Part shown: positions 5,471 through 63,116 of the stretch, piece after piece
Layout of the letters: every line of letters begins with the position of its first letter
Position numbering within the stretch: the stretch's first letter is position 1
Source of the DNA: Antedon mediterranea
Taxonomy: Eukaryota > Animalia > Echinodermata
Reading direction: 5' to 3'
Assembly: GCF_964355755.1 (NCBI RefSeq)
Contig: NC_092671.1
Location: 39,566,304 to 39,630,303, forward strand
DNA: 64,000 nt
The notes under the pieces: generated by a model
The model's database searches: none
Told to the model about the DNA's origin: nothing
Seen by the model: only the letters and a program-made list of their open reading frames with translations
Program-made: the position numbers and the translations under genes

Positions 5471-7742
<2,272 letters not shown>

Positions 7743-7759
7743 TTCCATATATATGTTCT

Positions 7760-30304: not shown

Positions 30305-31594
30305 AAATAGGTTTTTTAAAACTACTCGTATGAAAAAGCCGGTACATTGAATCAACTTTTGTTTTAAAATTACAAATCACAAATTATAATCCTTGCCTCT
30401 TGTCCAAAAATGAGGTTTTTTGGACAAGTAGTTCTCGGGAAAATGTAATTTCAGTTCTTTAAGACTGCTCACCGGCTTTTGAAAATTGTCTCCTATCTTT
30501 TAACACTAGCCGGTCTGAAAACAATATAATTTTGTTATTTGTGAAGTTATTAATAAACCAATTTTGTTGATTTTCAATAGGCATGGTCTGAAAGTAAATA
30601 CCTATCTACACCCAAAAATTCAGAACGATAACTTGATAACTGTAGGCGCTATCGTGCTAACAAACATACATACATACATACATATAAATCAAAGAGCTGC
30701 ATAGGCAGGATATAGAAAAAAATCAAGATCAAATAAGTTAAAACTGCCTCAATATAGATTTATTTTAACGACATGTTTCGGGCATAGCCCATCATCAGGT
30801 GAAAAGAATTGTAACAAAGGATAACATATATAAGTCACAAAATTACATAATAAAACAAATCAGCCAATCAAAGATGTTAACAAACAAAAGGCATAGTTAT
30901 AAAGGCACGCCTCCAAAAGCTATGGTGTACAAAGCAGGAATGGTTGCTTATAAAGCAGGAAATTTAAAACAAAGACAAAAGCTTCAAGTGTAAATAATTG
31001 TTAATATGTGAATGTCTCTGGCAAAATTAATGTTTAAAGGATCTAAATTGTACATTTATGCCGGTAGGGGCAAGAGTGCCAAGCTTTACAATTATTCTTT
31101 CTTCTATAATTCTACGAGATGTCTCAGAACCATTACATACTTTAACACCAGAAATAGTAATATCCGAAAGAGAATGCTCATTATTACAAAAATGGGTGGC
31201 TACAGGTAATCCGGGAGTCTTTAGTTTAATAGACCTTAAATGTTCTACAAACCTATCACCTAACCTGCGTTTAGTTTCACCAATATAAAGCATATTACAT
31301 TTAGTACACGAAATACAATAAACTAGATTTCTAGTGGTGCACGTAATACGATCTGTGATAACATAATTACCAGAAGGTCCTACTATTTGGTTTGAACATG
31401 AAACGTAATTACATGTCGAACATCTATTTCTATTACATTTGAATGTTCCAGTTGATTCATTACCTTTGTACATACATACATACATACATACAAACAAAGT
31501 AAATACTATACTTGGCAAAATTCTTTTTGCCAAGTAACAAACAAACACACGCTACCGATTACAATCATATACCTCCTTGGCGGAGGTAAATAAA
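30305..31594. mobile_element. Helentron/DINE-like non-autonomous element with internal (TACA)n, absent from copy 1
   Basis: Ends in acctccttggcggaggtaa, as does the element at ~53880; tetranucleotide tract; left end approximate. Confidence 0.5.
30687..31469 (-). mobile_element. Second, shorter Penelope copy (GIY-YIG part + hammerhead at ~30765-30805)
   Basis: Nearly identical to 6072-6853; bounded by (TACA)n on both sides. Confidence 0.9.
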
Positions 31595-34246: not shown

Positions 34247-37109
34247 ATGAAGTTCTTAGTATTTTTTGTACTAACCATTGGGTTGGTACTAGCGCAGAAA
34301 GACCCAAACTTTGCCGATGATCGAACTGTAATTGTTCACCTATTCGAGTGGAAATGGACAAGTATTGCCAAGGAATGTGAAAGGTAAACTATAACACGTA
34401 CCTATAAATAATATACGCACAATAAACAATTTATATCACAAAATATGTATAATCTATGGCCTACATGATACAGAATTGGTGTTATTAAACTAAATTTGAA
34501 CATAATCGTTATGGGTGTCAATAGCGAGTAAGTGGCCGAGCGGTTAAGACAGTTGAACCGTAATTAAGTAGCCATAACATCAGCAAGATTCGTGACTCAT
34601 GGTTCGGGTGGTAGAACAAGTCCTCTCGGATAAAGACTATAAACCGTATGTCCAGTGTACACATATAGTTCATGTGTATTTTGCATATTACTAGTACATC
34701 TTTCGAATCGAATAAGAGGGGTCACCCTGGGTGTACTAGTACACACATCAACTGATCATAACTGGGCTCATTGTGCAATTGGGTGTTTAGTTCACCACCT
34801 GCTGTTCACATCCTTCACTAATAAATATCTTAGTTAGAAGTTGAATAAAAAATGGAAACAAAAAATAACACTATTTGGTTATTTTATAAATTAATTAGGT
34901 TTTTGGGACCACATGGATTCGGAGGTGTCCAAATCTCACCACCAAACGAACATCGAATTGTCTACCAGCCCGACTGGGATCCAAATGTAAAACGCCCTTG
35001 GTATGAAAGCTATCAACCAATCAGCTACAAGCTTAAAACTCGACGCGGTACGCGTGACGAACTTATCGATATGGTGGAACGATGTAACAAGGCTGGCGTA
35101 AGAATCTACGCGGACGTTGTGGCCAACCATATGTGTGGAACTGATGCTGGTATTGGAACTGGTTCTGCAGATAGTACGTACGACACCTCACAATACTTAT
35201 TCTCTGGCGTGCCATTTTCTTCTGGTGATTTCAATGTCCCTCAGGGGAAGTGTAACAGCCACAATGACCAGATATCCAACTATGGAGATCCTGACCAGGT
35301 TTGTGTGCTTTAAATTAATGAATCATTTAGATAAAAAATTCTTGAATAATTACTAGTAGAAGTTGTATAGAACTTATAGTACAAACGATATGCAACAACG
35401 GTCTTTGTTTAACATTTTGTTATTCGTTCATACAGGTTAGAAATTGTAACTTAGTCGGGCTTATGGATCTCGATCTGTCAAAAGATTATGTACGTCAAAA
35501 AGTAGCCGACTATCTGAATGATCTGACATCTATTGGAATTGCTGGATTCCGTATAGATGCAGCCAAACATATGTGGCCAGCAGATTTCCAAGCCATTTTA
35601 GGTAAACTCAAGGACCTGCCAACAAGTTACTTCAATCCTGGCTCTCGTCCATTTGTTTACCAAGAGGTCATTGATCTAGGAGGCGAAGCCATCAGCTCTA
35701 CCGAATACACACACCTTGGTCGTGTTACAGAGTTCCGTTATGGTCGAGAGGTATCAGAAGCCTTCAGAGATGGAGGCAGTAATCATATATCAAATTACGA
35801 ACCATTTGGATCCGGCTGGAACAATATGGTGCCTGAAGGTGACGCACTAGCTTTTATTGACAATCATGATAACCAGAGAGGACATGGCGGTGGTGGACTA
35901 CTGGTAACACATGATGATGGTAAATACTACACACTTGCAGTAACGTATATGCTGGCATGGCCGTATGGTGTACCCCGTGTTATGAGTAGCTACGATTTCA
36001 CGACAGATTGGCAAGGTCCACCTTCAGATGGTAACTACGTAACCGATGACCCACCGATCATGCAAGATGGTAGCTGTGGCGGTGGCTGGGTGTGTGAACA
36101 TCGTTGGCGTGCAATCAAGAACATGGCAAAATGGAGAAACATTGCCGGTAATGAACCGGTGAAGAATTGGTGGAGTAATGATTACCAGCAGGCAGCTTTC
36201 TCTCGTGGAAGTAAAGCATTTGTTGCTCTCAATAGAGATTACAATCCAATCGATGCAAAACTTAATACTGGGCTTCCATCTGGAGAATACTGCGATCTAG
36301 CAAGAGGAGATTTTGATGACGCTAGTAAAACTTGTAGCGGGCCAACTGTCACAGTTGATAACGCGGGAAATGCCGACATCTACGTCGATAACAACTCCGA
36401 TGAGCCTGTACTCATACTCCATGTCGGTGCCATGGGTAAAGGTTGTTCTGATTGCGTTAATCCAACTTCTAAGCCCAATCCAACTTCTCCGCCAGACAAT
36501 GGTGGTGTAACATCTCCTGCCGGATCAAGTCGCACGGTAATATTTGTAAATAAACCTACAAGCAACGGTCAAGATTTATTCGTACGTGGCGGTATTGATC
36601 ACTCACGACGAACAGGATGTACATCGGAGGCGGAAACTAGCGCATGCGCACTACCGATTACACATCGTACAGGCGGCTCAAACGGTAAATACAACGCATG
36701 GAAAACAGGCGATATGCATCTTGATTGGTATGGAGCTGAGTACGGCCAAGGCAATTATAATGGCGACCATCCGGTTGGTTCTCCAATGGTTTGGACCACC
36801 AACAACCCCGGGCATGGTGGTAATGTTAACAAAGACGGGTATGGGTACACGGCTCTTAACCAATGGGGAGACCACTACTGGTTGCTGGACGTAGACATGG
36901 ACTGCAGTAAAACAGAGAATGGTTGGTTTGAGGTCAAAGCTTTCTTGAAGAACGGAGATGGTTGGGAGAGCGATCGCAACCAGGCATCAAGTTGTTCTGG
37001 AACTGCTGGTGGCAGCAAACCGTACACGACTGGCAATCATTTTGCACGATGTGGGTTTGTGAACGTATTCAACTACAATGACAATTCATGCCTTATCAAT
37101 AACTTTTAA
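34247..37109 (+). CDS. amy: Secreted alpha-amylase, long form with Pro/Ser/Thr linker and extra C-terminal domain; exons 34247-34383, 34899-35298, 35436-37109
   Basis: Same GH13 motifs as copy 1, then NPTSKPNPTSPP and RTVIF..GQDLFVRGGIDH..LDWYG..WTTN..WGDHYWLLDVDMDCSKTENGWFEVK. Confidence 0.95.
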
Positions 37110-41511: not shown

Positions 41512-41630
41512 TATATAAAACAGAATCGTAGACTAGTTGACAGAAGTTATGATAGAACTTCTAGTTCTGTCATAGTTGAGATCAATAGTCTTCACTCACC
41601 GACGTGTTTGCAACAGTCAGCACGGTAAGT
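41512..41630 (+). promoter_or_regulatory. Core promoter and non-coding exon 1 of His-rich gene 1, with 5' hairpin
   Basis: TATATAAA at 41512; AGTTATGATAGAACTT at 41545; stem TGATAGAACT/AGTTCTGTCA; donor G|GTAAGT at 41625; acceptor ttcttcag at 42820. Confidence 0.75.
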
Positions 41631-42823
41631 TGAACAAGTATTTAATTTATTTCATTTCAATAAATATTTCAGTGTATTTAAAATAAATACCCCAGGGAAG
41701 AAGTATTTAAAAGCGATAATTAATAAATTATAGCAATCATATTTATTTGAAATTCATAGACAAATATGTATTAAAGTTTATCGTTTTGGAATAATAACCT
41801 CAAATTATGTTACCTCTCTTTATAATGATGAATGATAAAATAATATTAAACACTATGACATCCATATAGGTACAGGTATGTTATTATTTAGTCATTGCTT
41901 TAAGTACCATCTATACGAACAAATAATGAAGGTATGGGTGCAATCAGATGAAGTTTGCTATACATAGATTAGTCACAAAGTCATATATACCGATAAAACT
42001 ATTAACCATTACACTGTATTTCCAAACTTCTAGGCCTATTGAGTTTGTTACTCGTCTTTCGCAAGAATTATATTTTGTTATCTAAATAAATAACGATATT
42101 AAATCTCGTCGTAGCACGGACACCATTTGCAATTCATATTCTCTTTAGTTCGTTATGTTACTCATGTAGGCTTAGGCCTACGGTACTTATACCATTTTGT
42201 ATTCCATGAATTTTCAAATTTCTTCTCCAACATACTGATGTATTCAGACAAACATTTTAGCATAATAAATAAATACACAGGTTAATGTGTGTCTACACGA
42301 TACCTGATGGCTAGTTGATTTAAAAGTAACAAAACCATTGAAAGGGGTTTGACGTATCACAACCTTTTTTACACTGAAAGTTTTGGAAAATAAGGCAAAC
42401 AGAACCTTATACCAAAGCAAAAGTGAATCAGATCAGAGCGGACATTCGGACATTCGGACACAACATTTTAATATTATTATTAATATAATATATTAATAAT
42501 ATTATTAATATCAATGAATTACATAAACATTAATTATTTCTAATCAAACATCAAATGATAACAGCAAGCATTCGCATAAATATATCGGTATTTAATAACA
42601 GTCCTTATACCATCTTAACTTTAATATGTAGGCTATTATTGTACTGATTATTGATTATTATATTTTTATATGAGAAATGGTTCTCGAAACTCGAATTTCA
42701 GACTGTTTGTATCGTTATTTAATGCTTTGTTTATAATGTATCCGTATTTTTTAAATTATACATGAAAGTATTTATACAGTATTGTAACTTATTAATTAAT
42801 AATTGGTTTGTATTCTTCAGAAA

Positions 42824-45800
42824 ATGAAGGTGTTTCTGTTAGCCGCGCTGTTGGGGTGCGTGTTGCTCCTGCAAGTACGCGCTGAATCGCAGTCGTCTGA
42901 CCTGCAGGACGATCAAAATGAAGTCAATTCTCTTGACCTGAAGGTAAACCCAGATTTGGAATCAGCTGACACCAGTGAAGTCGACAAAGACATGTTGGCC
43001 TCATCAGGTTTAGATAACGCACAAGAAATTAGTAAAAGATGTCGGCGACGATCCTTTAGACGCCGTTACAGACGTCGATTTCGTTGCCGTAGACGACGTT
43101 ACAGACGTCGAATAATTAGACGTTCTCGACGACGATACAAAGTACGACGCCTCCGAGTCCAATATTATTGGCGCAGTGGTCGATTCTACAGACTGTGTAG
43201 ACGTGGTCGTCGTACGTATTGGCGTCGTGTAACTTTCAGATGTCGAGGTGGACGTTTCTACTGCCTATACCGACATGGACGTCGACGATATTGGCGCATA
43301 ATGCGTGCATACGTGCGTAACAGACATGTATATGTTCTTCGAGGACGTCGATATATCAGAACATCCACAGTGGTTTCCTCAAGTAGAATTGTCACAAGAA
43401 CCAGTACTGGTGGATATCTCGTTTGGCGTAACAGGCGTTTGTATTTCCGAGTTCGTTATGGGCGTCGTTGGATATGGCGTGTTGTTCGATACAGATGGAG
43501 CCATCGTCGACTATATTTCTATTGGGGAAGAAGATGGCGATTGGTAAGGTGCTACAAACGTGGGGGACGAATGTTCTTCTACCGCAATGGTCGCTACTAT
43601 ACCGGTGGCAGAAGAAGACCAGTGAACCTGTACTTCCGAGGACGACGTCTCTTCTGGACAACCGTCTACCGTGGACGAAGAACATGGCGTCCAGTTCGTT
43701 ATCGATGGATCCGTCATCGTCTATACTTCTACCCAACGTTTGGCCGTCATCGAAGATGGCGCCCTGCTCCAGTTTATTACCGCAACGGTTATATATATGT
43801 CTTCACCAATGGTCGTTACCGTCGTACTGGTACATACCACCCACTCAACCCAAGACGTATAAATATTAATCTTTACTGGCGTGGAAAAAGACTTTACTGG
43901 ACTACAATTTATCATGGACGAAGAGTATGGCGTCCCGTGCGTTACAGGTGGTCCCACCATCGTCTATATTATTACCCACTATTTGGTAGCCGTCGAAGAT
44001 GGCGTCTAGCACCGGTGTACTACCGCAATGGATATGTTTTCTTTTACCGAAATGGCCGCTATTTCAAACGAAGGTTCAGATTTCCTCAACCTCAAACAAC
44101 AGTGTTTTTGTTCTGGCGAGGCAGACGCCTATACTTCAGATGGGTATCACATGGTCGTGTTAGATGGCGAGTGGTGAATTATCGCTGGCGCAATCACCGT
44201 CTGGTGTACTACATGCCATTCGGGCCACATCGTGGCTGGCGTATTGCACCAACATATCAACGAAATGGTCACATTTATATCTACCACAACGGTCGGTATT
44301 TTATAAGTGGAGGCGGTCACCCACACGTCCCCCATAGACCAAGTCGTCCCATGTTTGTTTGGCGCGGTGGCCACCTGTACTATCGATATCGCCGTGGAAA
44401 CCGCTACTATTACCGTATTGTGACAACCAAACGATACCATGGACGGTACTTTTATTACTACGGCAACACATGGCACATGCTAACGTACTACTACATGAAT
44501 GGAGTGTCATACTACTTCCATAATGGTCACTACCTTGTCAAGCATAAAACAGTGATAAAGTATCATCATCATCATCATTATCATCACCATTATCACACAA
44601 GGTTCCATACTAAAATAGTCAAACATCATCACCATCACCATCATGTAAAAATACACAGGATACACCATAACAAATATATCCACCATAAGATAGTACACCA
44701 CCGTGTGGTAAAGCACTACCGATATAAAACAATACACCACCATCATATAAAGCATGTTCACCATCACATACATCACCGTCGTGTTGTAAACCATCTTCGT
44801 ATTAGACACCACTACATCAAACACCATAAATACTATACCCATCACCATCACCATTACCGGCACGTGCACCATCGCCATCACCATCATGTTTACAGAAATC
44901 ACGTGATAACTCGTCATATCAAACGATATCATCACCGATATATCACTCGACTTCATCATCATTATCGTCATTTCCATCACGTAGTAAACCATCATAAGTA
45001 CGTCAACCATGTGAAATATAGACACAGATACGTGAAACACCATCGACACTTTACACATCATCACCATCACTACCGCCATGTTCACCACAAGGTTCACCAC
45101 CATAGATATATAAATCATGTGCGCTACCGACACCAATATATTCGACGTCATCGACGCTTCACCCACCACCATCATCGACATTTCCACATTCACCATCGTA
45201 TACACCACCATAAATATATAAACCACGTCAGTGTACGACACGTGAACATAGTTCGTCATCGTCATCTTGTCCACAACCATCACCATTACCACCATTACCA
45301 TCACAGACACCATCACCATCGGTACATCAACCATGTTAGCACAAAACATATTTATGTAAAACATAACAGATACCTTACCCATCATCACCACCACTACCAC
45401 CATTTCCATCACAGAATACACCACCACCGGTATATCAACCACGTTATAAACCGACACAAATATATTCGACACCATGTCCACTTGACTCATCATCATCACC
45501 ATTACCATCACTACCATCACCGACACCACCACCATAAGTACGTCAACCATGTGTTGGTACGTCACAAGTACGTCAAACATAACAGATATCTGACTCACCA
45601 CCATCATAAATTCATTCACATTCATCATAGAATACATCATCACCGTTATGTCAACCATCTCCGTATACGTCATCGGTACGTGAAACACCACACGCACATC
45701 ACACTTCACCATCACCACCACTACCATATTCACCATAGGATCCATCATCATCGAATTGTCAACCATGTAATTACCCGCCATCACTACATCCGGCACCATC

Positions 45801-48800
45801 GTTACTTGACCCATCACCATCACCACTACCATCATATTCATCACCGCCTCCATCACCATCGGTACATAAACCATGTGATCACAAAACAACATTATATCAA
45901 GCATCATGTTCATATAACCCATCACCATCACCACTACCACCACATCCACCATAGATTGCACCATCACCGTACCTACACACACGTACTTACCCGCCACAGA
46001 TACATCAAGCACCACCGTTATTTCACCCATCACCATCACCATTACAAACATTACCACCACAGAATTCACCACCATCGTTACATTAACCATGTACTAACAC
46101 GCCATCGAAACCTGTACCGTCACCGACATGTGACCCACCATCACCATCATTACTACCATCATCACCACAGAATACATCACCACCGATATATCAACCACGT
46201 AATTACACGTAACATTTATATCAGACATCACAAGCATTACACTCATCACCACAACCGATTCATCCATATTCAACACCGAATCCAACACCACCGATATATA
46301 AACCATCTCCGTGTTATCTACAAATATCTCTACAAAAACCGTTACATTACACGTAATCATAAACAATACTTTAACATATACCACCGTATTAGGCATAACA
46401 AAATAATTAACCATCTTCGAATTGTTCATAGATATATAAGAACAAATGTGTACCGACATTACAACCATCATAAATACTTCCACTTGCACAAGCATTACCA
46501 TCACCACCGATACGTCAACCATGTCATAACACGTCATCGAAATATATACAGACACCGACACGTGACACACCATCACCATCACTACTACCATGTCCACCAC
46601 AGACTTCATCACCATAAATACATCAACCATATCTTGTACCGACATAAATACATAAAACACCACCGTTATCTGACATACCACCATCACCATTACGTACACG
46701 TACATCACCGTCTCCATCATCACCGTTACGTCAACCACGTGCTCACACGTCACAAGAATATATATCGTCACCGATGGGTAACTCACCACCATCACCATTA
46801 CCGACACATTCATCACCACAGACATCATCACAAATATGTTAACCATGTGATCACACGTCACCATAACGTTTACAGACATCATTACATCACGCACCACCAT
46901 CACCATTACCATCACATCCATCACCGACTCCACCATCACAAGTTTGTAAACCATGTGGTAATGCACCATCGCTATATTAAACACCATCGATATCTGACAC
47001 ACCATCACCACAAATTTATTCATATTCATCATCATATCCAACATCACCGATACGTTAACCACTTGAAAGTACGTCATCGGTATGTTAAACACCACAGATA
47101 TTTGACTCATCACCATCATAGAACAATCCATATCCACCATCGCATACATCATCACCGCACTATTAACCACTTGCTTGTAAGACACCATAATATAGTAACT
47201 CACCGCTACTTGACACACCATCACCACCACTACCGTCACATCCACCACAGAATCAATCACCATAAATACATCAACCATTTGCGAATCCGTCACAAATACC
47301 TATACAAACATCGATACTTGACGCATCACCATCATCACTACCACCACCATCACCACAGAATTCATCACCACCGTGTTATCAAACACTTAAGAATACAGCA
47401 TCGGTATATCAAGACTCACCAATACCTCACCCATCACCACCACCATTACCGCCATATTCATCACAGGATTCACCATCATCGTGTAGTGAACCATTTGCGT
47501 ATCAGACACAAATATATATACAAACATCGTCATGTGACCCACCATCATCACCACTATCACCATCACCACCACACGCACCATCATCATCGCTATGTAAACC
47601 ACCTTAAAATCAGTCACCGATACATAAGAACCAATCGGTACTTGACACATCACCATCACCACTATCACCACCATCATCACATTGTAAACCACCATCGAAT
47701 CGTTAACCACCTTCGTGTCCGACATCGATACGTGAAACACCACACATACCGTACCCATCATCACCACCATTACCATCACTACCACCACAGATTCCACCAT
47801 CACCGTTATATAAACCATGTGCGTACCAAACATGTGTATCATCGTCATCATCAATACCTAACTCATCACCATCACCACTATCACCATTACCATCATAAAC
47901 TGCATCACCACCGCTACATCAACCGTGTCATGGTGCATCATCACTACATCAGACGTAATCGCTACGTAACTCACCATCATCACCACTACCGTCACATTCA
48001 CCACCGACACCATCACCATCGATACATCAACCATATCAGAACCAAACATGTGAACGTATACCGACACCGATATCTAACCCACCACCACCATCGTACCATC
48101 CATCTGCATCACTGGCACCATCATCATCGGTACTTAAACCATATGCACGTGCGCCACAGGTACATCAAGAGGCATATCTACCGAACACGTCACCACCATC
48201 ACTACCGACATTACCACCACCATATTACCCATCATCGTACCGTGCATCATACTAAATTCCACTTGAAGACTATCTATCACCATAAATTTTTAACGCATCA
48301 CCACCATATCTTCAAGACTCTACACCATCACCATCATCATCACCGTACCATCCATCATCGACGAACCATCTACAAGTACAAATACCATCACCACTATAAA
48401 CATCATCACCACCACCACTACCACAAGCACGTGAGTTCATCGCATCATCATTTCCACATGGGATTCCATGGATCATCTTTGAACGTGTTCTTTAGCTGGC
48501 GTGGTGGACATATGTACCATAGAGTACGAATACACGGACGATACACATGGCAGATTGTCAGAACCCGTATGCGAAACCACCACATGTATTATTTCACAAA
48601 CGGTAGATGGTACATCGTTCCCAACTACACCCGTAATGGCCGCTTTTACTTCTATTTGGATGGTCGATACAGTTCCAATCCCATGCCATCCGGTGGCAGA
48701 TTTAGCATCCGATATTTCAGTACAAATGTAAGAATAATCTTCAGAGGTGGACGCATGTATTATCGCTATCCTTATGGCCGAGGCTATCGTCTACGACCCG

Positions 48801-49333
48801 TACGTTTCCGAAGAAGACACGGTCGCTTCTACTACTGGACCGGCAAAACTTGGCAATTCGTTCCTTTCTATAGAATCAACACAACTTACTTCTACTACAT
48901 AAATGGCCGATACTATCCATTCGGTGTCAGTGGTGGTAGTAGCAGCTACAGCAGCTTCAGCAGTGGAAGAATCTCTTTCCATAGACCATACGTATTCTGG
49001 AGAAGAGGTCGTTTCTACTGGAGAACAGTAAGAGGTGGTAAAACATATTGGCGTCCTCTTCGCTACAACCGTTACCGTGGTCACTACCGCTACTATTACG
49101 GACGACGATGGCATTGGGTTAATTACTACGTTAATGGAAACAGATACTACTTCTGGTTAAATAACCGTTACCATTCCGTTCCGTATAATTTCTCTCGTGG
49201 GTTCCATGGGTTCGGTAGATTTAGTCGTGTATACCGCTCATATGTTACAAGAACCGTTGGGCCAATCCACCGCCACTTCGTATCACATCGATATGGTCAC
49301 ATTAGACGATTTATTCATAGATTCCGTCGTTAA
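42824..49333 (+). CDS. Giant secreted His-rich, Arg/Tyr-rich repeat protein 1 (2169 aa), family not recognised
   Basis: Uninterrupted 6.5-kb frame. ATG at 42824 just after an acceptor; signal peptide MKVFLLAALLGCVLLLQVRA; acidic segment ending ISKR; 6+3 R/Y/W modules around a 36-aa His repeat core; aataaa at ~49442 and ~49530. Confidence 0.9.
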   Translation: MKVFLLAALLGCVLLLQVRAESQSSDLQDDQNEVNSLDLKVNPDLESADTSEVDKDMLASSGLDNAQEISKRCRRRSFRRRYRRRFRCRRRRYRRRIIRRSRRRYKVRRLRVQYYWRSGRFYRLCRRGRRTYWRRVTFRCRGGRFYCLYRHGRRRYWRIMRAYVRNRHVYVLRGRRYIRTSTVVSSSRIVTRTSTGGYLVWRNRRLYFRVRYGRRWIWRVVRYRWSHRRLYFYWGRRWRLVRCYKRGGRMFFYRNGRYYTGGRRRPVNLYFRGRRLFWTTVYRGRRTWRPVRYRWIRHRLYFYPTFGRHRRWRPAPVYYRNGYIYVFTNGRYRRTGTYHPLNPRRININLYWRGKRLYWTTIYHGRRVWRPVRYRWSHHRLYYYPLFGSRRRWRLAPVYYRNGYVFFYRNGRYFKRRFRFPQPQTTVFLFWRGRRLYFRWVSHGRVRWRVVNYRWRNHRLVYYMPFGPHRGWRIAPTYQRNGHIYIYHNGRYFISGGGHPHVPHRPSRPMFVWRGGHLYYRYRRGNRYYYRIVTTKRYHGRYFYYYGNTWHMLTYYYMNGVSYYFHNGHYLVKHKTVIKYHHHHHYHHHYHTRFHTKIVKHHHHHHHVKIHRIHHNKYIHHKIVHHRVVKHYRYKTIHHHHIKHVHHHIHHRRVVNHLRIRHHYIKHHKYYTHHHHHYRHVHHRHHHHVYRNHVITRHIKRYHHRYITRLHHHYRHFHHVVNHHKYVNHVKYRHRYVKHHRHFTHHHHHYRHVHHKVHHHRYINHVRYRHQYIRRHRRFTHHHHRHFHIHHRIHHHKYINHVSVRHVNIVRHRHLVHNHHHYHHYHHRHHHHRYINHVSTKHIYVKHNRYLTHHHHHYHHFHHRIHHHRYINHVINRHKYIRHHVHLTHHHHHYHHYHHRHHHHKYVNHVLVRHKYVKHNRYLTHHHHKFIHIHHRIHHHRYVNHLRIRHRYVKHHTHITLHHHHHYHIHHRIHHHRIVNHVITRHHYIRHHRYLTHHHHHYHHIHHRLHHHRYINHVITKQHYIKHHVHITHHHHHYHHIHHRLHHHRTYTHVLTRHRYIKHHRYFTHHHHHYKHYHHRIHHHRYINHVLTRHRNLYRHRHVTHHHHHYYHHHHRIHHHRYINHVITRNIYIRHHKHYTHHHNRFIHIQHRIQHHRYINHLRVIYKYLYKNRYITRNHKQYFNIYHRIRHNKIINHLRIVHRYIRTNVYRHYNHHKYFHLHKHYHHHRYVNHVITRHRNIYRHRHVTHHHHHYYHVHHRLHHHKYINHILYRHKYIKHHRYLTYHHHHYVHVHHRLHHHRYVNHVLTRHKNIYRHRWVTHHHHHYRHIHHHRHHHKYVNHVITRHHNVYRHHYITHHHHHYHHIHHRLHHHKFVNHVVMHHRYIKHHRYLTHHHHKFIHIHHHIQHHRYVNHLKVRHRYVKHHRYLTHHHHRTIHIHHRIHHHRTINHLLVRHHNIVTHRYLTHHHHHYRHIHHRINHHKYINHLRIRHKYLYKHRYLTHHHHHYHHHHHRIHHHRVIKHLRIQHRYIKTHQYLTHHHHHYRHIHHRIHHHRVVNHLRIRHKYIYKHRHVTHHHHHYHHHHHTHHHHRYVNHLKISHRYIRTNRYLTHHHHHYHHHHHIVNHHRIVNHLRVRHRYVKHHTYRTHHHHHYHHYHHRFHHHRYINHVRTKHVYHRHHQYLTHHHHHYHHYHHKLHHHRYINRVMVHHHYIRRNRYVTHHHHHYRHIHHRHHHHRYINHIRTKHVNVYRHRYLTHHHHRTIHLHHWHHHHRYLNHMHVRHRYIKRHIYRTRHHHHYRHYHHHITHHRTVHHTKFHLKTIYHHKFLTHHHHIFKTLHHHHHHHRTIHHRRTIYKYKYHHHYKHHHHHHYHKHVSSSHHHFHMGFHGSSLNVFFSWRGGHMYHRVRIHGRYTWQIVRTRMRNHHMYYFTNGRWYIVPNYTRNGRFYFYLDGRYSSNPMPSGGRFSIRYFSTNVRIIFRGGRMYYRYPYGRGYRLRPVRFRRRHGRFYYWTGKTWQFVPFYRINTTYFYYINGRYYPFGVSGGSSSYSSFSSGRISFHRPYVFWRRGRFYWRTVRGGKTYWRPLRYNRYRGHYRYYYGRRWHWVNYYVNGNRYYFWLNNRYHSVPYNFSRGFHGFGRFSRVYRSYVTRTVGPIHRHFVSHRYGHIRRFIHRFRR

Positions 49334-52300
49334 ATTTCTATCATAAACGACAACGTTTAGCAATCAAATGTATTAAACTACCAACAACCAATCCAAATAA
49401 TACAAACTATATGAGGTTCTTGTTTTGGCCAAAATAGAAAGAATAAAACTATTCAACAATATTTGATTTGTAAACAACAACCATTTGGAGGGATATATTC
49501 TCTTGTGTAGGAATAGAGAGATATTAAATAAAATAAAGTGAAACGAAACAAAATGCAATATTTGTCATTGTCTGTTTTCTGTGTCTGTCATTTTCAAGTC
49601 TCTGCCTCCCCTTCTCTGTCATATACTTCACTCACATTTCCAAATATAAGTTGATAATAAATAAAAATAAACACTATACTATGTATTGTGGAGATAAAAA
49701 AAACGATACATATACCGTATACGTGATACTCATAATATGAGGGGAAACATACGGGTTAAGCGGCCAACCCCTATTCATGATTGCAGAATCTTTAGAGGAA
49801 CCGACAGACGAAATAGTATATTTTTTCGTTTTTAGAATATGTGGTAGTGTAGTTACATATTACAGGTAAGTCGTTTATATTACACACTCATAACAAAAAT
49901 CGCTTTACAACATTTTGAGAAAAAGATACAAATTATTTTTCCTTTTCAATCATGACAATGTCACTTACCACAAGCTGGAAAACAATGAAAATGTCACATA
50001 ACATCATAAGCATGAAAACAAAAAGTTTTCTGAGCATGAGCAGAGTGATTTCAATGACTTGGGCGTATTTTCAATGGACACGTGTTGATACAACAAGTAT
50101 CAATGAGGGTGACTCAGTGACATGTAAGTAATACCCTGGCATGCAGGTAAAAGCCAATTGACAACAATTGAAAATCATCTGTCTCTTACAGTGAGTTCCA
50201 AACAACAAACGCATCCAACATGCATCATTTGACACATTTCTGTAACACCTTTTTATTATTTTTCTGAAAAGACATTCCTAACAAAAATACTGTGGAGAAG
50301 TCTTCATCAATTACTACAAACTCCTGATTCACGATATCAAAACAATGCAAGGAACTAGCTAAAACTAGTTACAGTAACTTTGTCAAATCAATATGTATTC
50401 TTCTCTTTCTAATCTTTTAGTCGGGAGAGCCATTTCGTTTACTGTAGGTATTTCCTTAAATTTATACAACAAAAATATACATAATGCAAAACAATATGGA
50501 CACAAAGAAGCAAGATAAAATCGGCATTATAATTTTTAGAGAGGAGCTATTTTTTATTTTTATTTTTATTATTATTTATTTATTACAGATCATATAACTT
50601 GTCTATATCTACAATAAAACCTAAGGAGACAAAAGCAAAGTAACTCCTAATAGGAGTGTCAACTGATATTGTTTGTCCGTAGTGTTAAAATAATGTATTG
50701 TCCTTCATTCGTTTCAAGGGAAAGCTTATAATGGGTGTCTGAATAGAGGTGTCCCCTGGATAGGAGGTGGTGGGGTGCTACTGTATAACGTTGAAATATT
50801 GTTGCATTAGAGTCATACAACATATTGCTATACTGTTGGTGTTCGACAAATATCCAAAACAGCGACACAGTACTGGTATAATTTTACTGTAATAATTTTA
50901 AGTTGAATATAATAAATAAAGTATTATAGAAGGGCCTACAACATAAATGTTATTCTTTCTTTTCATTTAAAATTTTGTTTCCCTTAAAAAACGTTCACAC
51001 TGTGACACAAACGGTGATTTCATGACTAAAATTCTGTCTACTATCAAACTGGTAGTCATATACCCAAATATGGTAATGATGTGACATCATCATGTCCATA
51101 TATGGTCACACATTTTTTGTCACATCAAGTTTGAGTGTTATACAGAGCTTCAAATATTATTTGCTTACATTGTAAGTTTTTAAAAAAATGTATGTATATG
51201 CATACAAAAAGTCATGATCGTCAATGTCACTGGTTTCTCAGAACCAGTTACCTCACTGGTTTCTCAGAACCAGTTACCAATATGTTGTTACTTTTGTCAT
51301 AGCTATGCACCCAAGAGCTTGCTTATTCGCAGAGTTTCAATAATATTTTACTGTAATAATAATCCCTTTTTAAAATTATTCTAATTCCACGTATTAGTGT
51401 AAAAATTAATTAGGTGAAAACAAATTTTACTTGAATGAACCGAGCTAAGTTTATGCTGTATAAAGAGGGACGTGGCTCGACAGATGGGCAAATGACACTT
51501 AAAAACACTTGTTTAGTTTCGTATAAATATTGCCATCTCTACCATATGTTACAAGTTTTAAGTAATGCTTTATAAACATCATAACGCATTCTTTTTTTAA
51601 AGGTTTTTTTGTATTTTCATATTTGTTGTAACTTTACTTTGTGAACTAATGTAGAGGCCCAATGATACTAAGGTCGTATCTGTAAGAAGCATCCGAGTTA
51701 AATATTGAATAGATGGCGTCGACAGGCCTACTGATAGATAGTGACACAAATGCAAATGTATAGTCATAGGTTATGAGGAGCTCCACCTTTTAGTCTATAT
51801 AGTCAACAACCTTGAATCCTCCTCCTCTCATTAGCTATCGTCAAACATCTCTAACATCACATTATAGCTATTAAATAAGACATTGCTGAATGTACCATCC
51901 TTTAATTAAATTCTTCTTGAATCATAATATTGATACTCATTTTTATATAAGACAAAAATACTAATATTCATTTTTGTCTGTAGTTCGTTGATGAACCTTT
52001 AGTGGGTTGTGACCCGGTCTTGTACTGAGGACTACTTGACATCTATAGATATTACACAACATCTGGACATATATTAGGCCTTCTCATTAGAATTTTAGAT
52101 ATTTTGGATTGGGTCTGAGGGGAAGACTGTTTAGTTTTATTTGTAAATTGGTCAACTTATCTCATTTTCCACCTTAGTTAACTATTTATCATCTTCTTTT
52201 AAAGTAACTTATTTTGTTTGTTTTTTTGTTATTTTGATTTTGAATATTTTCTTATTGTTGTTCGGGTTTTTAAGCTTTGCTTATGTTTAGTACCCTTTTC

Positions 52301-52854: not shown

Positions 52855-53375
52855 AGTATAATTAATAGAAAACTAAACTAGAGGGTACTCCGAGAGTACA
52901 AACCTCAGCCTCAGTATAATTAATAGAAAACTAAACTAGAGGGTACTCCGAGAGTACAAACCTCAGCCTTAGTATAATTAATAGAAAACTAAACTAGAGG
53001 GTACTCCGAGAGTACAAACCTCAGCCTTAGTATAATTAATAGAAAACTAAACTAGAGGGTACTCCGAGAGTACAAACCTCAGCCTTAGTATAATTAATAG
53101 AAAACTAAACTAGAGGGTACTCCGAGAGTACAAATCTCAGCCTTAGTATAATTAATAGAAAACTAAACTAGAGGGTACTCCGAGAGTACAAACCTCAGCC
53201 TTAGTATAATTAATAGAAAACTAAACTAGAGGGTACTCCGAGAGTACAAACCTCAGCCTTAGTATAATTAATAGAAAACTAAACTAGAGGGTACTCCGAG
53301 AGTACAAACCTCAGCCTTAGTATAATTAATAGAAAACTAAACTAGAGGGTACTCCGAGAGTACAAACCTCAGCCT
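52855..53375. repeat. 58-bp tandem array, 9 copies
   Basis: agtataattaatagaaaactaaactagagggtactccgagagtacaaacctcagcctt. Confidence 0.97.
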
Positions 53376-53892
53376 ACTGTAAAATTTCCTTACATAAAAT
53401 GTCACCGGAAAATATCTATATATTTTTACATTTTTTTTTAATTAGTTGTAAGTGTAAATAGGCTAACTGCACACTACAAAGTTGTGGATGAGAGTTTGGT
53501 GTAATGGTTATGTATCCAGCCTCTCACAGTTGAGATCGCTGGTTTAAGCCCCGCTGAGGTTTTTTTTTGTGGACCTTGATCTTTGACCCTGACCCTTCAA
53601 AATTTAACCACAATTACATGATGAGTCATTGGTCTTTGTGGATAAGTTTGGTGAGAATCGGATAAAAACTGTGGTCTCTAGGCAGTAAAATAGGTTTTTG
53701 TTAGTTGTGACCTTGACCTATGACCTTTTCCCTTCAAATTCGAACTCGTCCGAGCTTTTGGGGTATAGATCATTGTGGCCAAATTTGGTGAGAATCGGAT
53801 AAAAACTGTGGCCTCCAGCCTGTTCACAGACAGACAGACACACACACAAACATACAGGGGTGAAAATATAATCTCCTTGGCGGAGGTAATAA
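53339..53892. mobile_element. Helentron/DINE-like non-autonomous element
   Basis: Left end actaga-gtactc/gagtac-aacctcagcc; tgacctt subrepeats; (GACA)n tract; right end ctccttggcggaggtaata. Confidence 0.6.
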
Positions 53893-54042: not shown

Positions 54043-54192
54043 AACTCTGTCTACACTATTAAACTATTTTGACAAAAAAAAGTGTGATGTGCCCAAATAT
54101 GATAGTGATATGCCCAAATATGGTAGTGATATGATCATCATCATGTCCATATATGGGCACATCACATACAGTTTGATAGTGTAGACAGAGCT
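54043..54192. mobile_element. MITE family with TIR ctctgtctacactatcaaact; other copies at ~20620, ~25820, ~39108, ~51030
   Basis: ctctgtctacactat...tagtgtagacagag; shared core catcatcatgtccatatatgg. Confidence 0.75.
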
Positions 54193-54922
54193 TTAAAATA
54201 ACCCGGAGTTTTCATCAAATTTTCTCCAAAGTCGGGCTCAGGAACGATAATGTCAAACACCGACAATATACGTTCATTCAAATCTGATTCGATGCCTGAA
54301 ACCACTACCGTAGTAGTAAACGTAATGTAATAAAAATAACCAATTTGGAGTGTTCATCATCATCAAAAACAATGAAATGAAGTTTTAAAAAGAAATCAAC
54401 AGGTTCATTTTTATTCACGCTATAGTATGGTTATCTTCTGTAATGTACGAGTTCTTTCAAAAACTCAAACTGGTTTGAATGAGTGTAGACGAAATCTTTC
54501 TATATGACAACTGACGACACAGGAACAAGTCAATTGTGCGCATGCGGGGAAGTTGGAACATGCTCTATATTCGTCTACACAGTTTTAATTGTTTTCATAC
54601 TGTAGTCTATTGGTGGTAGGTCATCAGTTTTAATCAAGCGAAAGCTTCCTAAAACTCCGGGCAAAGTACATTACATTTTAATATTTTCAAGAAAAAAATT
54701 GAAAACAAACAACATAGACCTATCTTCATTTAGTGCATTTTATTTCGAATGCTTTTAATCGATATTGAACATTTTCCTCAAATTTATAAACAATATGATT
54801 TGACAATATCACTGGATATTTTTACTGTATTTTTCAGAATTATTACCATTTATGGCTTTTGATCTTATTCCAGCGTTGAATATATTTAGAAATGATTATT
54901 TGCTATCTAGATATTATATTCT

Positions 54923-57900
54923 TTAATAGGAATAGGATGATGAACTGGAGGAAGAGTGCCAGCTACCACCACCAGAACCACCGGAGCTGGAACTGGAATG
55001 AAAAGATGAAAATCCACCGCTTACGAAGTGTCCGCCTCCAGACACGCCGCCAGTTTGAATGTAACGTCCGTTGTGAAGGTAATTCAAACGCCCATTTTTA
55101 ATGTAACTGCGCATAAGCATCCATCTAGCGGTTCGGCCGTTTTTCCATAAGAAGTAAAAGCGACCATGACGTCTTCTATACTTGACAGGGCGCCATCTGT
55201 AACGGTGATTGCCAAACTGCAGACGGGCGTAGAAACGTCCGTGCCTCCAGTACATGGTGGCGCTTGTTCTGATCACACGTGTTCTGAATGATGAGATTCT
55301 AGCCCGATAATATCGACCATTGTGTAAGAAGTAATAGTACCCACCGCTTGTGTAGCTTCTTACTATGCTCCATCTACGACTTCTGTTACGCGCGGGCAAT
55401 GCGTACAAAATACCATTTCGTCGACGGTACGTTACTCTAATAAGGGTAGTACGCCTACCACGACGGTATTTGTAGTATAGAACATTATTTCGCATAACAT
55501 ATGGGGTGTATCGGATTCTAAACTTCATATGACGGGGATGTGTTCGATAACGGCCATGGGAAAAACTATAGTAACGGTTATTCATTCGATAAAATCTCAT
55601 CAAATGCCATCTGCGATTCCAGAGGAAGTAGTAGCGACCGTGACGTTTACGGTAGTTGACTGGTCTCCAGCTGGGTCGTCCTCTTGGTCCTCTTACAGCA
55701 TAGTAGAATTTTCCACCTCTCCAGTAAAATTGTCTTGGGTAGTTGGACTGCCTAAATATAACTTTGTTATATCGGCCATTTGACCAATAGTAGTAAACAC
55801 CTCTGCGTCTGTAAAACATAGTGAACACCCAAGTTTTACCATTCCAGTAGAACAAACGACCATGTTGTCTGCGGAATCGGACGGGTCTTAGTCGGCGTCC
55901 AAATCTGTAGTAGAGTCGGTTTCCACGCCAATAGACATGGCAAAGGCTGGGGTTAAAACGTCTCATTCGTGGCCTATATTGGGGCTGTAGATAATAACGG
56001 TTATTGAACCAGTAGTAATAGCGACCGTGGTTGTTATAGAAGTTTACAGGGCGCCAAGTGTAACGACCGTGGGATGGCCAGTAATAGTAGAATCGTCCAT
56101 GAATGCGGCGATAACGCACTGGTCGCAACATGTAACGACCACCTCGTCGGACGTAATAGTACAATCGATTATTTTTCCACATAATAAATGTGTTGCGTTG
56201 AATGTAGCCAGGGCGATATCTAACCATGTAGTGACCATTATTCCAGTAATAGTATCCACCATTGAGGTTGTAGGAAGTCACATAGTGCCAGGTGTTATTG
56301 TAAAAATAACTTAGGCGACCGTGGTGCTTTCGGTAACGAACAGTGGTCCATACGTAGCGGTTGCCCCGTCGAACACGATAGTACAAACGTCCATGTCGCC
56401 AGGAAATATTAGCTGAATAAGAGTAGGTATGGTGGTGTACATGACGGTAATGGTGGTGGTGATGGTGAAGATGATGTGTTTTGTGCACGTGTTTGGTCAC
56501 TCTTCGTACGTGATACTTGTGTTTGACGTGGTAGTGATGGTGATGACGGTGTACGATGTGTCGATGGTAAACATGCTGGTGATGGATGCGGTTCACGTGT
56601 TTGTAGACGTTTTGGTGATGGTACTTATGGTGTACTTTATAGTGGTGATGGTAATGATGGACTCGATGCCTGTGGTGCACGTGTTTGTAATGCACTATCG
56701 TGATTCGATGTGTGATTATTTTGTGGTGATGACGATGGTGCGTATGGTACACGTGATGGTGATGGTGTACGTAATGACGATGGTGTAGATGTCGGTGATG
56801 TGTAACAAGTATGTTGTGTCTTATGAGACGATGGTGGTATCTATGGTGCACGTGGTGGTAATGGTGGTGGTGATGGATGTTGTGATGGTGGTGTACATGG
56901 CGATGATGCGTTGTTAGAATATGATGATAGATGTGGCGATGGTGGAATCTATGATGAACATGGTGGTAGTGATGATAATGGTGGATGCGATGGTGATGGT
57001 GCACGTGTCGGTGGTGCGTAATTGTGATGTGGTGGTGGATGGTTCTGAGATGGTATCGGTGATGGGCGTGGTAGTAATGATGGTAATGATGTATACGGTG
57101 ATGATGGTGGATGTGACGATGATGTCTTACGTGAATGTGGTGCACAATTGTACGCAGATGGTATCTATGGTGTACGTGGTGCCGGTGGTGGTAGTGATGA
57201 ATATGATGGTGGTGATGCACATGTCGGTGGTGTGTTGTGACAATATGGTGGACAACGGTACGGTGATGGAATCGGTGGTGAGTGTGATACACGTGATGGT
57301 AATGGTGGATATGATGATGATGCTGCATGTGACGATGATGCGTTACAGTAACATGATGCAGCACGGTTCTAAGGTGATATTTATGATGTACATGGTAGTA
57401 ATGATGATAGTGGTGGATGTTGTGACGATGGTGGACATGTCGGTGATGTGTTATACGAATATGATGAAGGACTGTTTTCAAATGGTATTTGTGATGTCTG
57501 TGGTAATAATGGTGATAATGGTGGACATGATGGTGGTGATGGAGATGTCGGTGGTGTGTAACGGTCACGTGGTGATACACAGTACGTGTGTGGTACCTAT
57601 GGTGGATATGGTAATTGTGGTGGTAGTGGTGGATTCGGTGAATGTGGTGAAGATGCCTGTGATGTGTTATACGAATATGATGGTAAATGGTACGGTGATG
57701 GTATCTATGGTGGGCGTGGTAGTAGTGATGGTAGTGGTGAACGTAATGCCTGTGGTGCAGGTTTTTGTGGTGCGTAATATGAATGTGATGTACGATTGTT
57801 CGGAGATGGTATCGGTGATGAGTGTGGTAATGGTGATGGTAATGATGGATGTAATGCGTGTGGTACAGGTGTCGGTGATGAGTTATATGTATGTGATGAG

Positions 57901-60900
57901 CCACATATCGGTGGTGGTATCTGTGATGGGTATGGTAGTAGTGGTGGTAATGGTGAATGGCATGTCGATGGTGCAGATGCTTGTGGTGTACCACGTTAAT
58001 ATGGTGATAAATATGTCGGTGATGGTATCGGTGATGGGTATGATAATGGTGATGGTAATGATGGATCTGGTGGAAGTGATGGACATGTTTATGATGCAAC
58101 ACATTTATGTGGTGGTAGACGGTACGGTGGTGGTATCTATGGTGGATATGGTAGTAGTGGTGGTAATGATGGATATGGTGATAATGATGAATGTGTCTTC
58201 TGTGGATCACATTAATGTGATGTAGGACCAGACGATGATAATATCTGTGGTGAGTATGGTAATAGTGATGATAGTGATGGATATAGTGTCGATGATGTAA
58301 GTGTCGGTGATGTACTATAGTTATATAATTGTATATATTTCTGTGGTGGAATCTATGGTGAACATGGTAATGATGATGGTGGTGATGGATATAATGGCGA
58401 TGGTATCTATGTAGGTGATGGATAGTCTTGATGTGGGTAACTATATACCGAGTGATATACCTATGGTATCGATGATAGGTATGTATATAGTGGTGAATGT
58501 AATACCGATGGAAAACGTCTTTAATGTGGTTAACGGTAACATGGACATACACTATTCGTTTACGGTAATTATGGTGCACGTGGTAGTAGTGGTGGTAGTG
58601 ATGAATGTAATGCTTGTGGTATATATGACGATGGTGTGAATAAGTTATATAGTGATATACATTTCGGTGATGGTATCTATGGTGGACATGGTAATAATGG
58701 TGATAATGGTGGATGTGGTGTCGGTGGTGCAAATGACGGTGATGCACAACAGTTATATGGTGATATATGGTGCGATGGTGGTACCTGTGGTGAACATGGT
58801 AATAATGGTGGTAGTGATGGATAGCGTGACGGTGGTGGACATGCCTGTGGTGGGCAATGTGGATATGATGGTAAATGGTACGATGGATATACCGATGGTG
58901 TCGGTGGTAGTAATGATGATAATGATGGATGTAGTGACGATGGTGTAAATGACGATGGTGAATTATTTTGATATGGTGGTAGATATGGCGGTGATGGTAT
59001 TTATGGTGAACATGGTAATAGTGGTGATAATGATGAACGTAGTGGTGATGATGAAGGTGGCGATGATGTGTTATTTTAATGTGATGCCTAATATGTCTAT
59101 GGTGGTATCTGTGGTGAATATGGTAATAATGGTGATAGTGATGGTGATAATGTCTGTGGTGCAGATGACGACGATGGAGGACGTGGATATGGTGTACCAC
59201 GGTACGAAGGTGGTATCGGTGATGAACGTGGTAGTAATGATGATAGTGGTGTACATAATGCGTGTGATGTACGTGTCGGTGGTGCAGAGTGTGTATATGG
59301 TGGACTAAGAGTCGGTGATGGTATCTATGATGGACATGGTAATAATGGTGATGATGGTGTATACGGTGATGATGGTGCACGTGTTTATGGTGCACTATAC
59401 GTATATGGTGATAGAAGGTACGGTGATGATATTTATGGTGGACATGGTAGTAGTGGTGGTAGTGGTGAATACGATGGTGATGATGCACGTGTCTATGGTG
59501 GGTCACGTGGATATGATGGTAAACACGTCGATGGTGGTACCTATGGTGAATGTGATAGTAATGATGGTGGTGATGGATATGGTGATGATGGTGACGGTGA
59601 AGGTGGTGCGTTATCAAACGATGGTGATATATGATACGATGGTGGTAGCGGTGATGAGTGTGGTAATAATGATGATAGTGGTGGTGGTAATGACGATGGT
59701 GTAAGTGACGGTGATGATTTATTGTGATATGGTGTCTAATGGTATGCAGGTGGTATCTATGGTGCACATGGTGAATATGGTGATAATGATGAATAGTGTG
59801 TCGGTGGTGCACGTGCTTATGGTGATTCACACGAATATGGTGAAGGACTGTGTGAAGGTGATACCGGTGGTGAACATGATGCCGATGGTGGTAATGGTGA
59901 ATATTATGGTAATGGTGTCGGTGTCGGTAATGCGTAACATGAATATGGTGTATTATGTTACGGTGATGATACCTATTGTGAATGTGACGGTAATGGTGGT
60001 GATGGTGAATTATATGCCTATGGTATATATGCCTGTGGTGATTATAACGGAGATGATGGTACACATGACGGGTGTGGTATCGATGAGTCACGTGATAGTG
60101 ATGATGATAGTGGTGTCTTAGGTGAGTATGGTGCTTATGACGGTGTAAAGTCACGTAAACATGACGATTCTTGATAACATGATGATAGCGATGATGGGTG
60201 TGTATCAGATGCTTATATTTGTGGTGATAATGATGATGGTGAAGATGCACGTGTCGAATGCGCACCTTTGTTTTGTAGTGATGCACGTGGTGATGGTGAT
60301 GCCTATGCCTGTGTATAATATGTGTGTGCGTCAAATAATGACCATGGTTGTAATAGTAGTTGCGGCCGTTCAAATAGTAATAACGGACAATATGCCATGT
60401 TTTGTGGCCTCCGTAACCCCACCAAAAGTAGTAGCGGCCATGCACTTTTCTGTAACGGACCAGGCGCCAGGTATAGCGGTTGTTATGATACCACCGCATG
60501 TACAGACGTCCGCCACGGAATCTAAAACGAAGAGTTCCGATCGAAGGCCTAAAGTTGTAACGACCATGGTTCCAATAGTATGTGCGTCCATTGATAGTGT
60601 AATAGCGAACAATGGACCAGATATATCGGTGGCCTACGCGATGGTAGTAGTATGTGCGTCCATGATATCTTCTATATTTGACAGGACGCCAGCGGTAACT
60701 GTTTCCAACACGATAGCGTAAGTAGAGGCCATTGCTACGCCAGTAAAAATGAATCTGTCCATTTGTGCGATAGTAGGTTACACTAACGCTAGGAAGCCTT
60801 AATCTTGGGTAATATTGGTAGCGACCATTTCTGAAGATGAACATTCGTCCAAATATTCTAATATTATGAACCAAAGACCAGATGTACCGTCTTCCTACAC

Positions 60901-62621: not shown

Positions 62622-62738
62622 ACTTACCTATGTCAGATAGGAACCAGCAAGTTTGTCTCAGTTGATCTGTGTTCTGATAGAACTTAGTGGAAGTTCTATC
62701 ATAACTCCTGGTAAAATTGCTAATTGTTCATTTATATA
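62622..62738 (-). promoter_or_regulatory. Core promoter and non-coding exon 1 of His-rich gene 2, with 5' hairpin
   Basis: Minus strand TATATAAA 62738-62731; AGTTATGATAGAACTT from 62706; perfect 11-bp stem within 62675-62701; donor AG|GTAAGT at 62627. Confidence 0.75.
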
Positions 62739-62984
62739 TGACAGGGCCACTTGTTTACTTAACTTGAGTGTTGGTCTTACATTCTACGGGTAGTGTGTGG
62801 TATTAAGTGTCAAAGCAAAGAGTTCATATGCACAATTGTTTCAATAGATTTGTTTCTTGTGAAGTGATCGTTTTGATTTATATCCCCATATGTTCTTGTT
62901 AATTAATAATTATACATTTGACTTTACCACTTATATTTGGCTTTGCAAAAATTGCAAAAACGTTTCTTCAGTTCGTTTTCTGTA

Positions 62985-63116
62985 GAACTAATTAACCGAT
63001 AATAGGATATAGAACTGTTAATAGGTTATAGGACCGATAATAGGATACAGAACCGATAATAGGTTATAGAACTGATAATCGGATATAGAACCGTTAATAG
63101 GATACAGAACCGATAA
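62985..63116. repeat. ~19-bp degenerate tandem (gaaccgataataggatata)
   Basis: 6-7 visible units. Confidence 0.8.

Follow-up and report, generated by a model that had tools for sequence, protein, structure and literature searches.

An apparently undescribed domain, predicted to be a beta-meander and possibly a cationic-aromatic sticky cap, at both ends of two predicted secreted histidine-rich giant proteins of the crinoid Antedon mediterranea

Overview

Two convergent genes of Antedon mediterranea, here called gene 1 and gene 2, encode a pair of material-type giant proteins whose ends are built from copies of what is apparently an undescribed crinoid domain. Both lie in a 64,000-nt stretch of contig NC_092671.1 that we analysed whole (the window). 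The domain, referred to below as the module, is predicted to fold as a beta-meander, and arrays of it flank a long His-rich rod in both proteins. On composition and on analogy with other materials, we put at about even the chances that the modules act as multivalent cationic-aromatic sticky caps at both ends of two predicted secreted His-rich giants, by the mechanism set out under Proposed function. Coordinates of all features are collected in Table 1.

Gene anatomy and transcription

Each gene has a single uninterrupted ORF, and the two products follow the same order: signal-like start, acidic segment, Arg-rich tract, N-cap modules, His rod and C-cap modules. Signal peptides, here and in the homologue described below, were judged by eye, and secretion of both proteins is predicted from them. 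D and E together number 15 in the gene 1 protein and 12 in that of gene 2, with only one acidic residue per protein beyond aa 70. The computed net charge is +431 (gene 1) and +364 (gene 2) at pH 8, as against +953 and +957 at pH 5. No exact match for either protein was found in the protein collection searched.

Table 1. Features of gene 1, gene 2 and the third promoter-like unit, in window coordinates
Feature	Position	Strand	Remarks
Gene 1 TATA box and motif/hairpin	TATA 41512; motif/hairpin 41546-41574	+	Likely just after transcript start
Gene 1 non-coding first exon	41557-41624	+	Part seen in X5 and X8 contigs
Gene 1 5′ UTR intron	41625-42820	+	GT..AG, 1196 nt; joint in X5 and X8 contigs
Gene 1 coding sequence	42824-49333	+	One uninterrupted ORF, 2169 aa, 284 kDa, pI 11.6
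Gene 1 N-terminal part	42824-43153	+	Signal-peptide-like ~aa 1-20, acidic aa 21-69, Arg-rich tract aa 71-110 (charge profile)
Gene 1 module 1	43166-43354	+	HMM; aa 115-177
Gene 1 module 2	43421-43597	+	HMM; aa 200-258
Gene 1 module 3	43631-43819	+	HMM; aa 270-332
Gene 1 module 4	43874-44062	+	HMM; aa 351-413
Gene 1 module 5	44111-44299	+	HMM; aa 430-492; copy folded by AlphaFold
Gene 1 module 6	44357-44533	+	HMM; aa 512-570; adjoins rod
Gene 1 His-rich rod	44543-48430	+	36 frames of 36 aa, outermost degenerate; His-poor frames 17-18
Gene 1 C-terminal modules 7-9	48494-49171: 48494-48670, 48737-48913, 48995-49171	+	HMM; aa 1891-1949, 1972-2030, 2058-2116
Gene 2 coding sequence	54923-61513	-	One uninterrupted ORF, 2196 aa, 288 kDa, pI 11.2; convergent with gene 1
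Gene 2 C-terminal modules 5-10	55061-56404: 56228-56404, 55994-56182, 55769-55933, 55547-55726, 55310-55498, 55061-55252	-	HMM; aa 1704-1762, 1778-1840, 1861-1915, 1930-1989, 2006-2068, 2088-2151
Gene 2 His-rich rod	56417-60304	-	36 frames of 36 aa, outermost degenerate; His-poor frame 17
Gene 2 N-terminal modules 1-4	60335-61240: 61049-61240, 60818-61006, 60557-60745, 60335-60523	-	HMM; aa 92-155, 170-232, 257-319, 331-393
Gene 2 predicted 5′ UTR intron	61523-62627	-	Donor and acceptor sequence only
Gene 2 TATA box and motif/hairpin	62675-62738 (hairpin 62675-62701)	-	Shared 5′ motif
Third TATA + motif + splice-donor unit	63800-63920 (motif 63834; hairpin 63839-63860)	+	Spacing as in genes 1 and 2

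The first intron of gene 1 is skipped in contigs from two studies carrying two organism labels (X5 and X8). None of the sources listed is recorded as RNA, and RNA origin of X5 and X8 was judged from this splice joint alone; gene 1 is therefore transcribed, and its 5′ UTR intron stops 3 nt short of the ATG. The X5 contigs cover most of both coding regions, and the contigs say nothing on level or tissue. A further source, X10, contributed a small share only and was left out of the evidence. Between organism labels A and B, compared over gene 1 aa 77-190 on one contig at depth 7, the 12 differences listed (of 14) affect 11 codons, of which 8 change non-synonymously and 3 synonymously, a ratio near neutral, so that the Arg tract and module 1 would not be tightly constrained at the residue level. 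Differences within labels, among those listed for both genes, are mostly conservative (8 non-synonymous to 10 synonymous).

Three copies of the motif GTT[AT]TG[AT]TAGAACTT are present in the window, at gene 1, at gene 2 and in the third unit on the plus strand, each 33-34 nt downstream of TATATAAA and 78-81 nt upstream of a GTAAG donor. Since the TATA box and motif are common to these 5′ regions, co-regulation and co-expression of genes 1 and 2 and the third unit are suggested, and the third unit is likely to be the start of a further family member that lies beyond the window edge, divergent from gene 2. The shared motif forms the 5′ arm of a hairpin close to the inferred transcript starts, with z-scores of -2.86, -2.38 and -0.73 over three sequences, too few to prove an RNA structure. 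Differences among the three sites keep pairing through G-U; the hairpin could be a translational control element, or else a palindromic DNA site with GATA-like half-sites. An Rfam search of 62500-64000 returned nothing beyond one chance-level row.

Other features of the window

Two tandem alpha-amylase genes lie on the plus strand (16685-18351 and 34852-37109), the second with the C-terminal extension that many invertebrate amylases have and the first without it in the ORF seen. The first, over 16763-18348, is 100% identical to a RefSeq Antedon mediterranea protein across 146 + 339 aa; the second is 93% identical, all other matches listed reaching at most 59%. A minus-strand gene at 20214-22110 combines a signal-like first exon near 22.1 kb with a Cys-rich antistasin-like exon at 20214-20630. 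Between these exons is a 1-kb repeat that reads as Asp-rich DDDDTV on the plus strand (323 aa open) or as SSSSATV on the minus strand (one stop); it may encode a mucin-like segment or an acidic one of biomineral type, or else be non-coding. Retroelement remains were recognised by eye at 1455-4415 (+), 6412-7764 (-), 23809-24868 (+) and 31027-31551 (-); they comprise an integrase-like element that includes an OTU-like segment, two copies of a Penelope-like reverse transcriptase whose end is GIY-YIG-like, and LINE-like fragments. High-copy interspersed repeats and a ~58 bp tandem array lie between genes 1 and 2 (51050-51130, 54050-54195, 52870-53380).

The module

An iterated HMM started from one copy found 19 modules of 55-64 aa, arranged 6+3 in gene 1 and 4+6 in gene 2. 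Scanning the entire window in six frames returned the same 19 and no extra copy. The first-pass annotation had given the same count and arrangement; its interval 43160-44535 matches the first six modules of gene 1 (43166-44533), and its consensus agrees with the column profile of the 19 modules. Pairwise identity among them averages 40% (range 29-71%).

Because the composition of the module is extreme, we scored each copy only with a profile built from the other gene (gene 1 modules against the 10 of gene 2, gene 2 modules against the 9 of gene 1) and compared it with composition-preserving shuffles. For all 19 modules, none of the 500 shuffles scored as high as the module itself; the copies thus align significantly, which is what the first-pass annotation had wished to see checked with an HMM. 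Two positions never vary, a Trp and the Tyr that closes the module, and the columns include five Gly/Asn/His turns. The modules consist of R 22.6%, Y 16.9%, G 9.4%, N 6.1%, F 6.0%, W 6.0%, C 0.4% and D 0.1%, and all 19 are positive, with net charges from +9 to +24. In a half-against-half test on non-overlapping columns the two halves recognise each other, at most 10 of 200 shuffles exceeding the real score in 14 of the 19 modules in one direction and 17 of the 19 in the other; the module is therefore built from an internal duplication with a unit of ~25 aa.

AlphaFold predicts module 5 of gene 1 as a seven-strand antiparallel beta-meander with short turns, at pLDDT 84 (five models, 78-84) and with a pTM of only 0.60, the input alignment consisting of the 19 paralogous repeats. 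The model supports the beta-meander proposed at first pass. Hairpin registers were derived from the turn positions, not from model coordinates, and would place Arg or Lys opposite an aromatic residue at two positions (15 and 13 of 19 modules) and aromatic opposite aromatic at others (14, 17 and 16 of 19). Such cross-strand ladders are compatible with a cation-pi surface and fit the Arg-Tyr/Trp contacts that had also been proposed.

The histidine-rich rod

The rods have a period of 36 and are 41% and 48% His, and their repeats align gapless across both genes (49 windows). Among 28 and 27 regular repeats, synonymous sites are saturated while pN stands at 0.21-0.26, and the rod is therefore old and constrained. 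A Pfam search with the gene 1 rod gave no match. In the AlphaFold model every repeat forms a single long beta-strand of a meander, at low confidence (pLDDT 57). Covariation tests gave no consistent signal and leave the strand model unconfirmed; repeat-by-repeat colinearity scores were noise, and a structure search with the rod model found no match, a pLDDT 57 model being too weak to weigh much. If the model holds, the long strands, one from each repeat, could assemble into a broad sheet or a barrel. The His-poor frame 17, common to both rods, is a possible hinge near the rod middle.

Searches for relatives

The first-pass annotation had called the domain unrecognised, and searches of Pfam, PDB, Foldseek and VIA, none of which gave a confident match, bear this out. 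No Pfam family matched the modules close to its cut-off, chitin-binding families were absent among the module matches listed, and the cell-wall-binding repeat (choline-binding/CROP) matched none of the 19 modules up to an E-value of 10. One module matched WW_2 (E 0.024) and one WW (E 0.12), with no full-length profile match, and the PDB sequence search gave a WW-like stretch of 18 positions only (E 0.01); we do not class the module as a WW domain. In Foldseek the best rows are mostly choline-binding and clostridial CROP repeats (E 0.3-2, TM 0.20-0.22, rmsd 10-11), none against PDB or BFVD having E < 0.001. The best VIA rows are unrelated meanders (Z 3.5-3.7, rmsd 5.4), and Z of at least 5 was reached by 0 of 48161 and 0 of 592 chains, which is not proof of a new fold; CROP and choline-binding chains are absent among the rows listed for the second chain set. 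None of the structural matches suggests a ligand.

A HMMER search of the module profile against 1.84 billion representatives (50% clusters, in which relatives inside a cluster or never annotated would be missed) yielded two proteins at E of at most 0.001. One was rejected as unrelated, its match (E 6.8e-4) covering 29 positions within a 2708-aa repeat protein. The other, XP_071965392.1, an uncharacterised A. mediterranea protein of 342 aa, is the one credible homologue: 0 of 500 shuffles reach the score of either of its modules, with 46% identity over 61 aa. Like the products of genes 1 and 2, it has a signal-like start, an acidic segment, an Arg tract and the module, here in two copies, but it is far shorter and has a Cys/Arg tract and no His rod. 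The presence of two modules without a rod marks the module as a portable unit. The protamine-like Cys/Arg tract (aa 68-156) follows the signal and acidic segment, and gene 1 has a shorter counterpart at aa 71-110.

A word-based homologue search with gene 1 aa 110-580 confirmed 0 of 899 candidates, and alignment of the module to longer proteins gave 0 of 5582 in a weak search that missed XP_071965392.1 as well. The Atlas search gave no usable match, a metagenome scan produced 115 pattern matches of which 0 were confirmed, and no description of the gene 1 or gene 2 protein was found in the open PMC and bioRxiv literature.

These results bear on a defence role, in which a polyprotein would release or display its modules as membrane-lytic or microbe-binding cationic domains while the His rod sequesters metal. 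The order of signal, acidic and cationic parts is like that of antimicrobial precursors, the modules join high positive charge with Trp and Tyr, XP_071965392.1 would be a short version with its Cys/Arg tract, and the weak Foldseek rows (E 0.3-1) are to choline- and glycan-binding repeats. The likeness to beta-hairpin antimicrobial peptides seen at first pass stands as far as composition goes, but the modules have almost no Cys, and so no disulfide-locked hairpins, and sit inside proteins of 284-288 kDa. Moreover, a 50-aa acidic segment cannot mask some +400 charges with the D and E residues available, and length-matched gapless rods in two paralogues are unexpected for a peptide precursor. We hold a defence role to be unlikely.

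Arrangement of the caps

The reciprocal 6+3 and 4+6 layout had been read as a sign of antiparallel or end-to-end assembly, that is, of a heteropolymer of the two proteins joined through complementary caps. The counts stand, but as an argument for antiparallel assembly the layout finds no support, and we regard such a heteropolymer as very unlikely. That both rods have 36 frames and both genes the same 5′ motif would suit a partnership of some kind. The His-count profiles of the rods also correlate in reverse orientation, with r 0.58-0.60 once shifted by 2-3 frames, as expected from a His-poor patch near the rod middle, but the highest correlation (r 0.65) is the parallel one without any shift, and the two genes are colinear in the same direction, with the His-poor frame numbered 17 in both. 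All modules are strongly positive, and the N and C caps are therefore not charge-complementary.

In the module tree, N and C modules form no separate groups and 11 of the 18 inner branches are open. The only starred pair, gene 1 module 8 with gene 2 module 7, is C-terminal in both (support 97/93). Modules 3-5 of gene 1 share 57-71% identity, and modules 3 and 4 are 72% alike in DNA; their grouping has support of 95-98 in one tree, but the values drop to 85/65 and 89/75 in a second tree built with more care. The two extra N-terminal modules of gene 1 would fit a local expansion of modules 3-5, which, counted as one ancestor, leave four N modules in gene 1, as in gene 2.

Proposed function

The function we propose for caps and rod draws on their composition and on likeness to other materials. 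The proteins would be packed in acidic secretory granules at a computed net charge of ~+950. At seawater pH the His rod would shed 520-590 positive charges (computed, pH 5 to 8), leaving deprotonated imidazoles free to bind Zn or Cu, so that the rod would serve as a pH and metal switch. The caps, still positive, would tie polyanions together through 9-10 modules per chain, the candidate partners being mucins and sulfated glycans or pigments, and the material so formed would be a coacervate or a solid, dense and strongly refractive. With caps at both ends each chain would be a two-ended cross-linker, and valency would therefore outweigh the N versus C split. There are precedents: a His-rich mfp4 domain gels with Zn and cationic mussel proteins coacervate with hyaluronate (PMC12817120), His-rich nereid jaw proteins belong to a Zn-hardened material (PMC13120676), and reflectins assemble upon charge neutralisation (10.1101/456442).

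The contents of saccules are the single best tissue candidate, on suggestive evidence only. The family of Anneissia is not known to have saccules; the HMMER module search gave no Anneissia match, though Anneissia proteins are in that collection, an absence that may be an annotation gap because genes 1 and 2 are themselves missing from it. With a per-residue table in which only the Phe and Tyr values were checked, the predicted dn/dc is 0.209 and 0.210 for the two proteins and 0.214 for modules, above amylase controls at 0.195 (n=120, one family); since any His/Arg/Tyr-rich protein scores high, these values are only suggestive. They also exceed the range of 0.1965-0.2084 given for beta-gamma-crystallins (PMC4047532; PMC11118217). 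Crinoid saccules are described, in 10.1101/2024.08.14.607903, as refractile and autofluorescent organs of unexplained function that are abundant in Antedon, highly refractive and placed over an opsin-expressing plexus. They stain with sense RNA probes (PMC9793003), as a polycation would, but such staining has other causes.

A specific version of the sticky-cap reading would make the two proteins the bulk content of these refractile saccules, a matrix or lens protein selected, like reflectins and crystallins, for high refractive index. The co-regulated, secreted and ultra-refractive block proteins, beta-meander stickers on a 36 x 36 His beta-sheet rod, would then make up lens-like bodies above the opsin-bearing nerve plexus. 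We offer this version tentatively, as a possibility that we ourselves doubt. If true, an optical material comparable to reflectins or crystallins would have been invented independently, and an organ that has wanted an explanation since the 1880s would gain its first molecular handle.

An adhesive or coat protein, on the larval adhesive pit, in egg-pinnule attachment, in the fertilisation membrane or in tube-foot mucus, seems to us rather improbable as the identity of the pair, though the pit, egg attachment and fertilisation membrane are real alternatives as sites. Here Tyr would turn into DOPA or dityrosine, with an mfp-4-like core and mfp-3-like ends. Cap and rod composition indeed resembles that of mussel foot proteins 3 and 4, of which mfp4 is a His-rich connector (PMC12817120), and Antedon has an adhesive pit, pinnule-held embryos and an ornamented fertilisation membrane (PMC11336682). 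Against this, neither the caps nor the gene 1 rod matched the mussel foot protein families of Pfam, the caps are predicted to be folded, and many Tyr residues seem tied up in the cross-strand ladders derived from the turn positions.

The module, with no family match in the libraries searched, a fold predicted with fair confidence and an occurrence so far only in Antedon, is a new building block. The two proteins are unusual in design as a material: their His rods are equal in length and free of gaps, their cationic-aromatic caps are predicted to be folded, the computed swing between pH 5 and 8 exceeds 500 charges, and the predicted refractive increment lies above that of lens crystallins. This design might serve as a template for pH- and metal-triggered underwater materials. 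The two genes could also be used as probes for saccule composition, or else for crinoid glue.

Comparison with known systems

Among mussel foot proteins, mfp-4 is His-rich and mfp-3 is rich in Arg, Tyr, Trp, Asn and Gly. The Antedon proteins are likewise predicted to be secreted, cationic and provided with a His-rich block, and have similar cap residues (PMC12817120 for mfp4), but no homology was detected by Pfam or the HMMER profile search, and they differ in their 284-288 kDa chains, predicted folded cap domain and strict 36-aa rod.

Reflectins have a Met-rich motif and are intracellular, without a signal peptide. The proteins described here, with 0.8% Met over the whole chain, a signal-like N terminus, a His rod and no Pfam match, do not belong to that family. 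Reflectins resemble them in being cationic block copolymers of repeated domains that assemble by charge neutralisation (10.1101/456442) and in their high refractive index (PMC11118217), which for the Antedon pair is predicted only.

Whole-protein Gly is 3.5-3.6%, with none in the 72 rod frames listed, which sets the pair apart from the nereid jaw type. Nvjp-1 and Nai11527 are secreted His-rich proteins of a Zn-hardened material (PMC13120676), which recalls the predicted secretion and His content of the Antedon pair, but they are Gly/His-rich, at 29% Gly and 16% His, against 41-48% His in the rods described here.

The module, as predicted, shares aromatic beta-hairpins and Asn-Gly turns with choline-binding and CROP repeats, but has an internal unit of ~25 aa and longer arms, and is linked to them by no Pfam match and by Foldseek E-values of at least 0.3. 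Antimicrobial peptides of the tachyplesin, arenicin and protegrin type are short hairpins locked by disulfides; the module, at 0.4% Cys and with no conserved Cys column, is not one of them. Standing outside all families tested, the two Antedon proteins would, by analogy, work like His-rich and cationic-aromatic self-assembling secretions.
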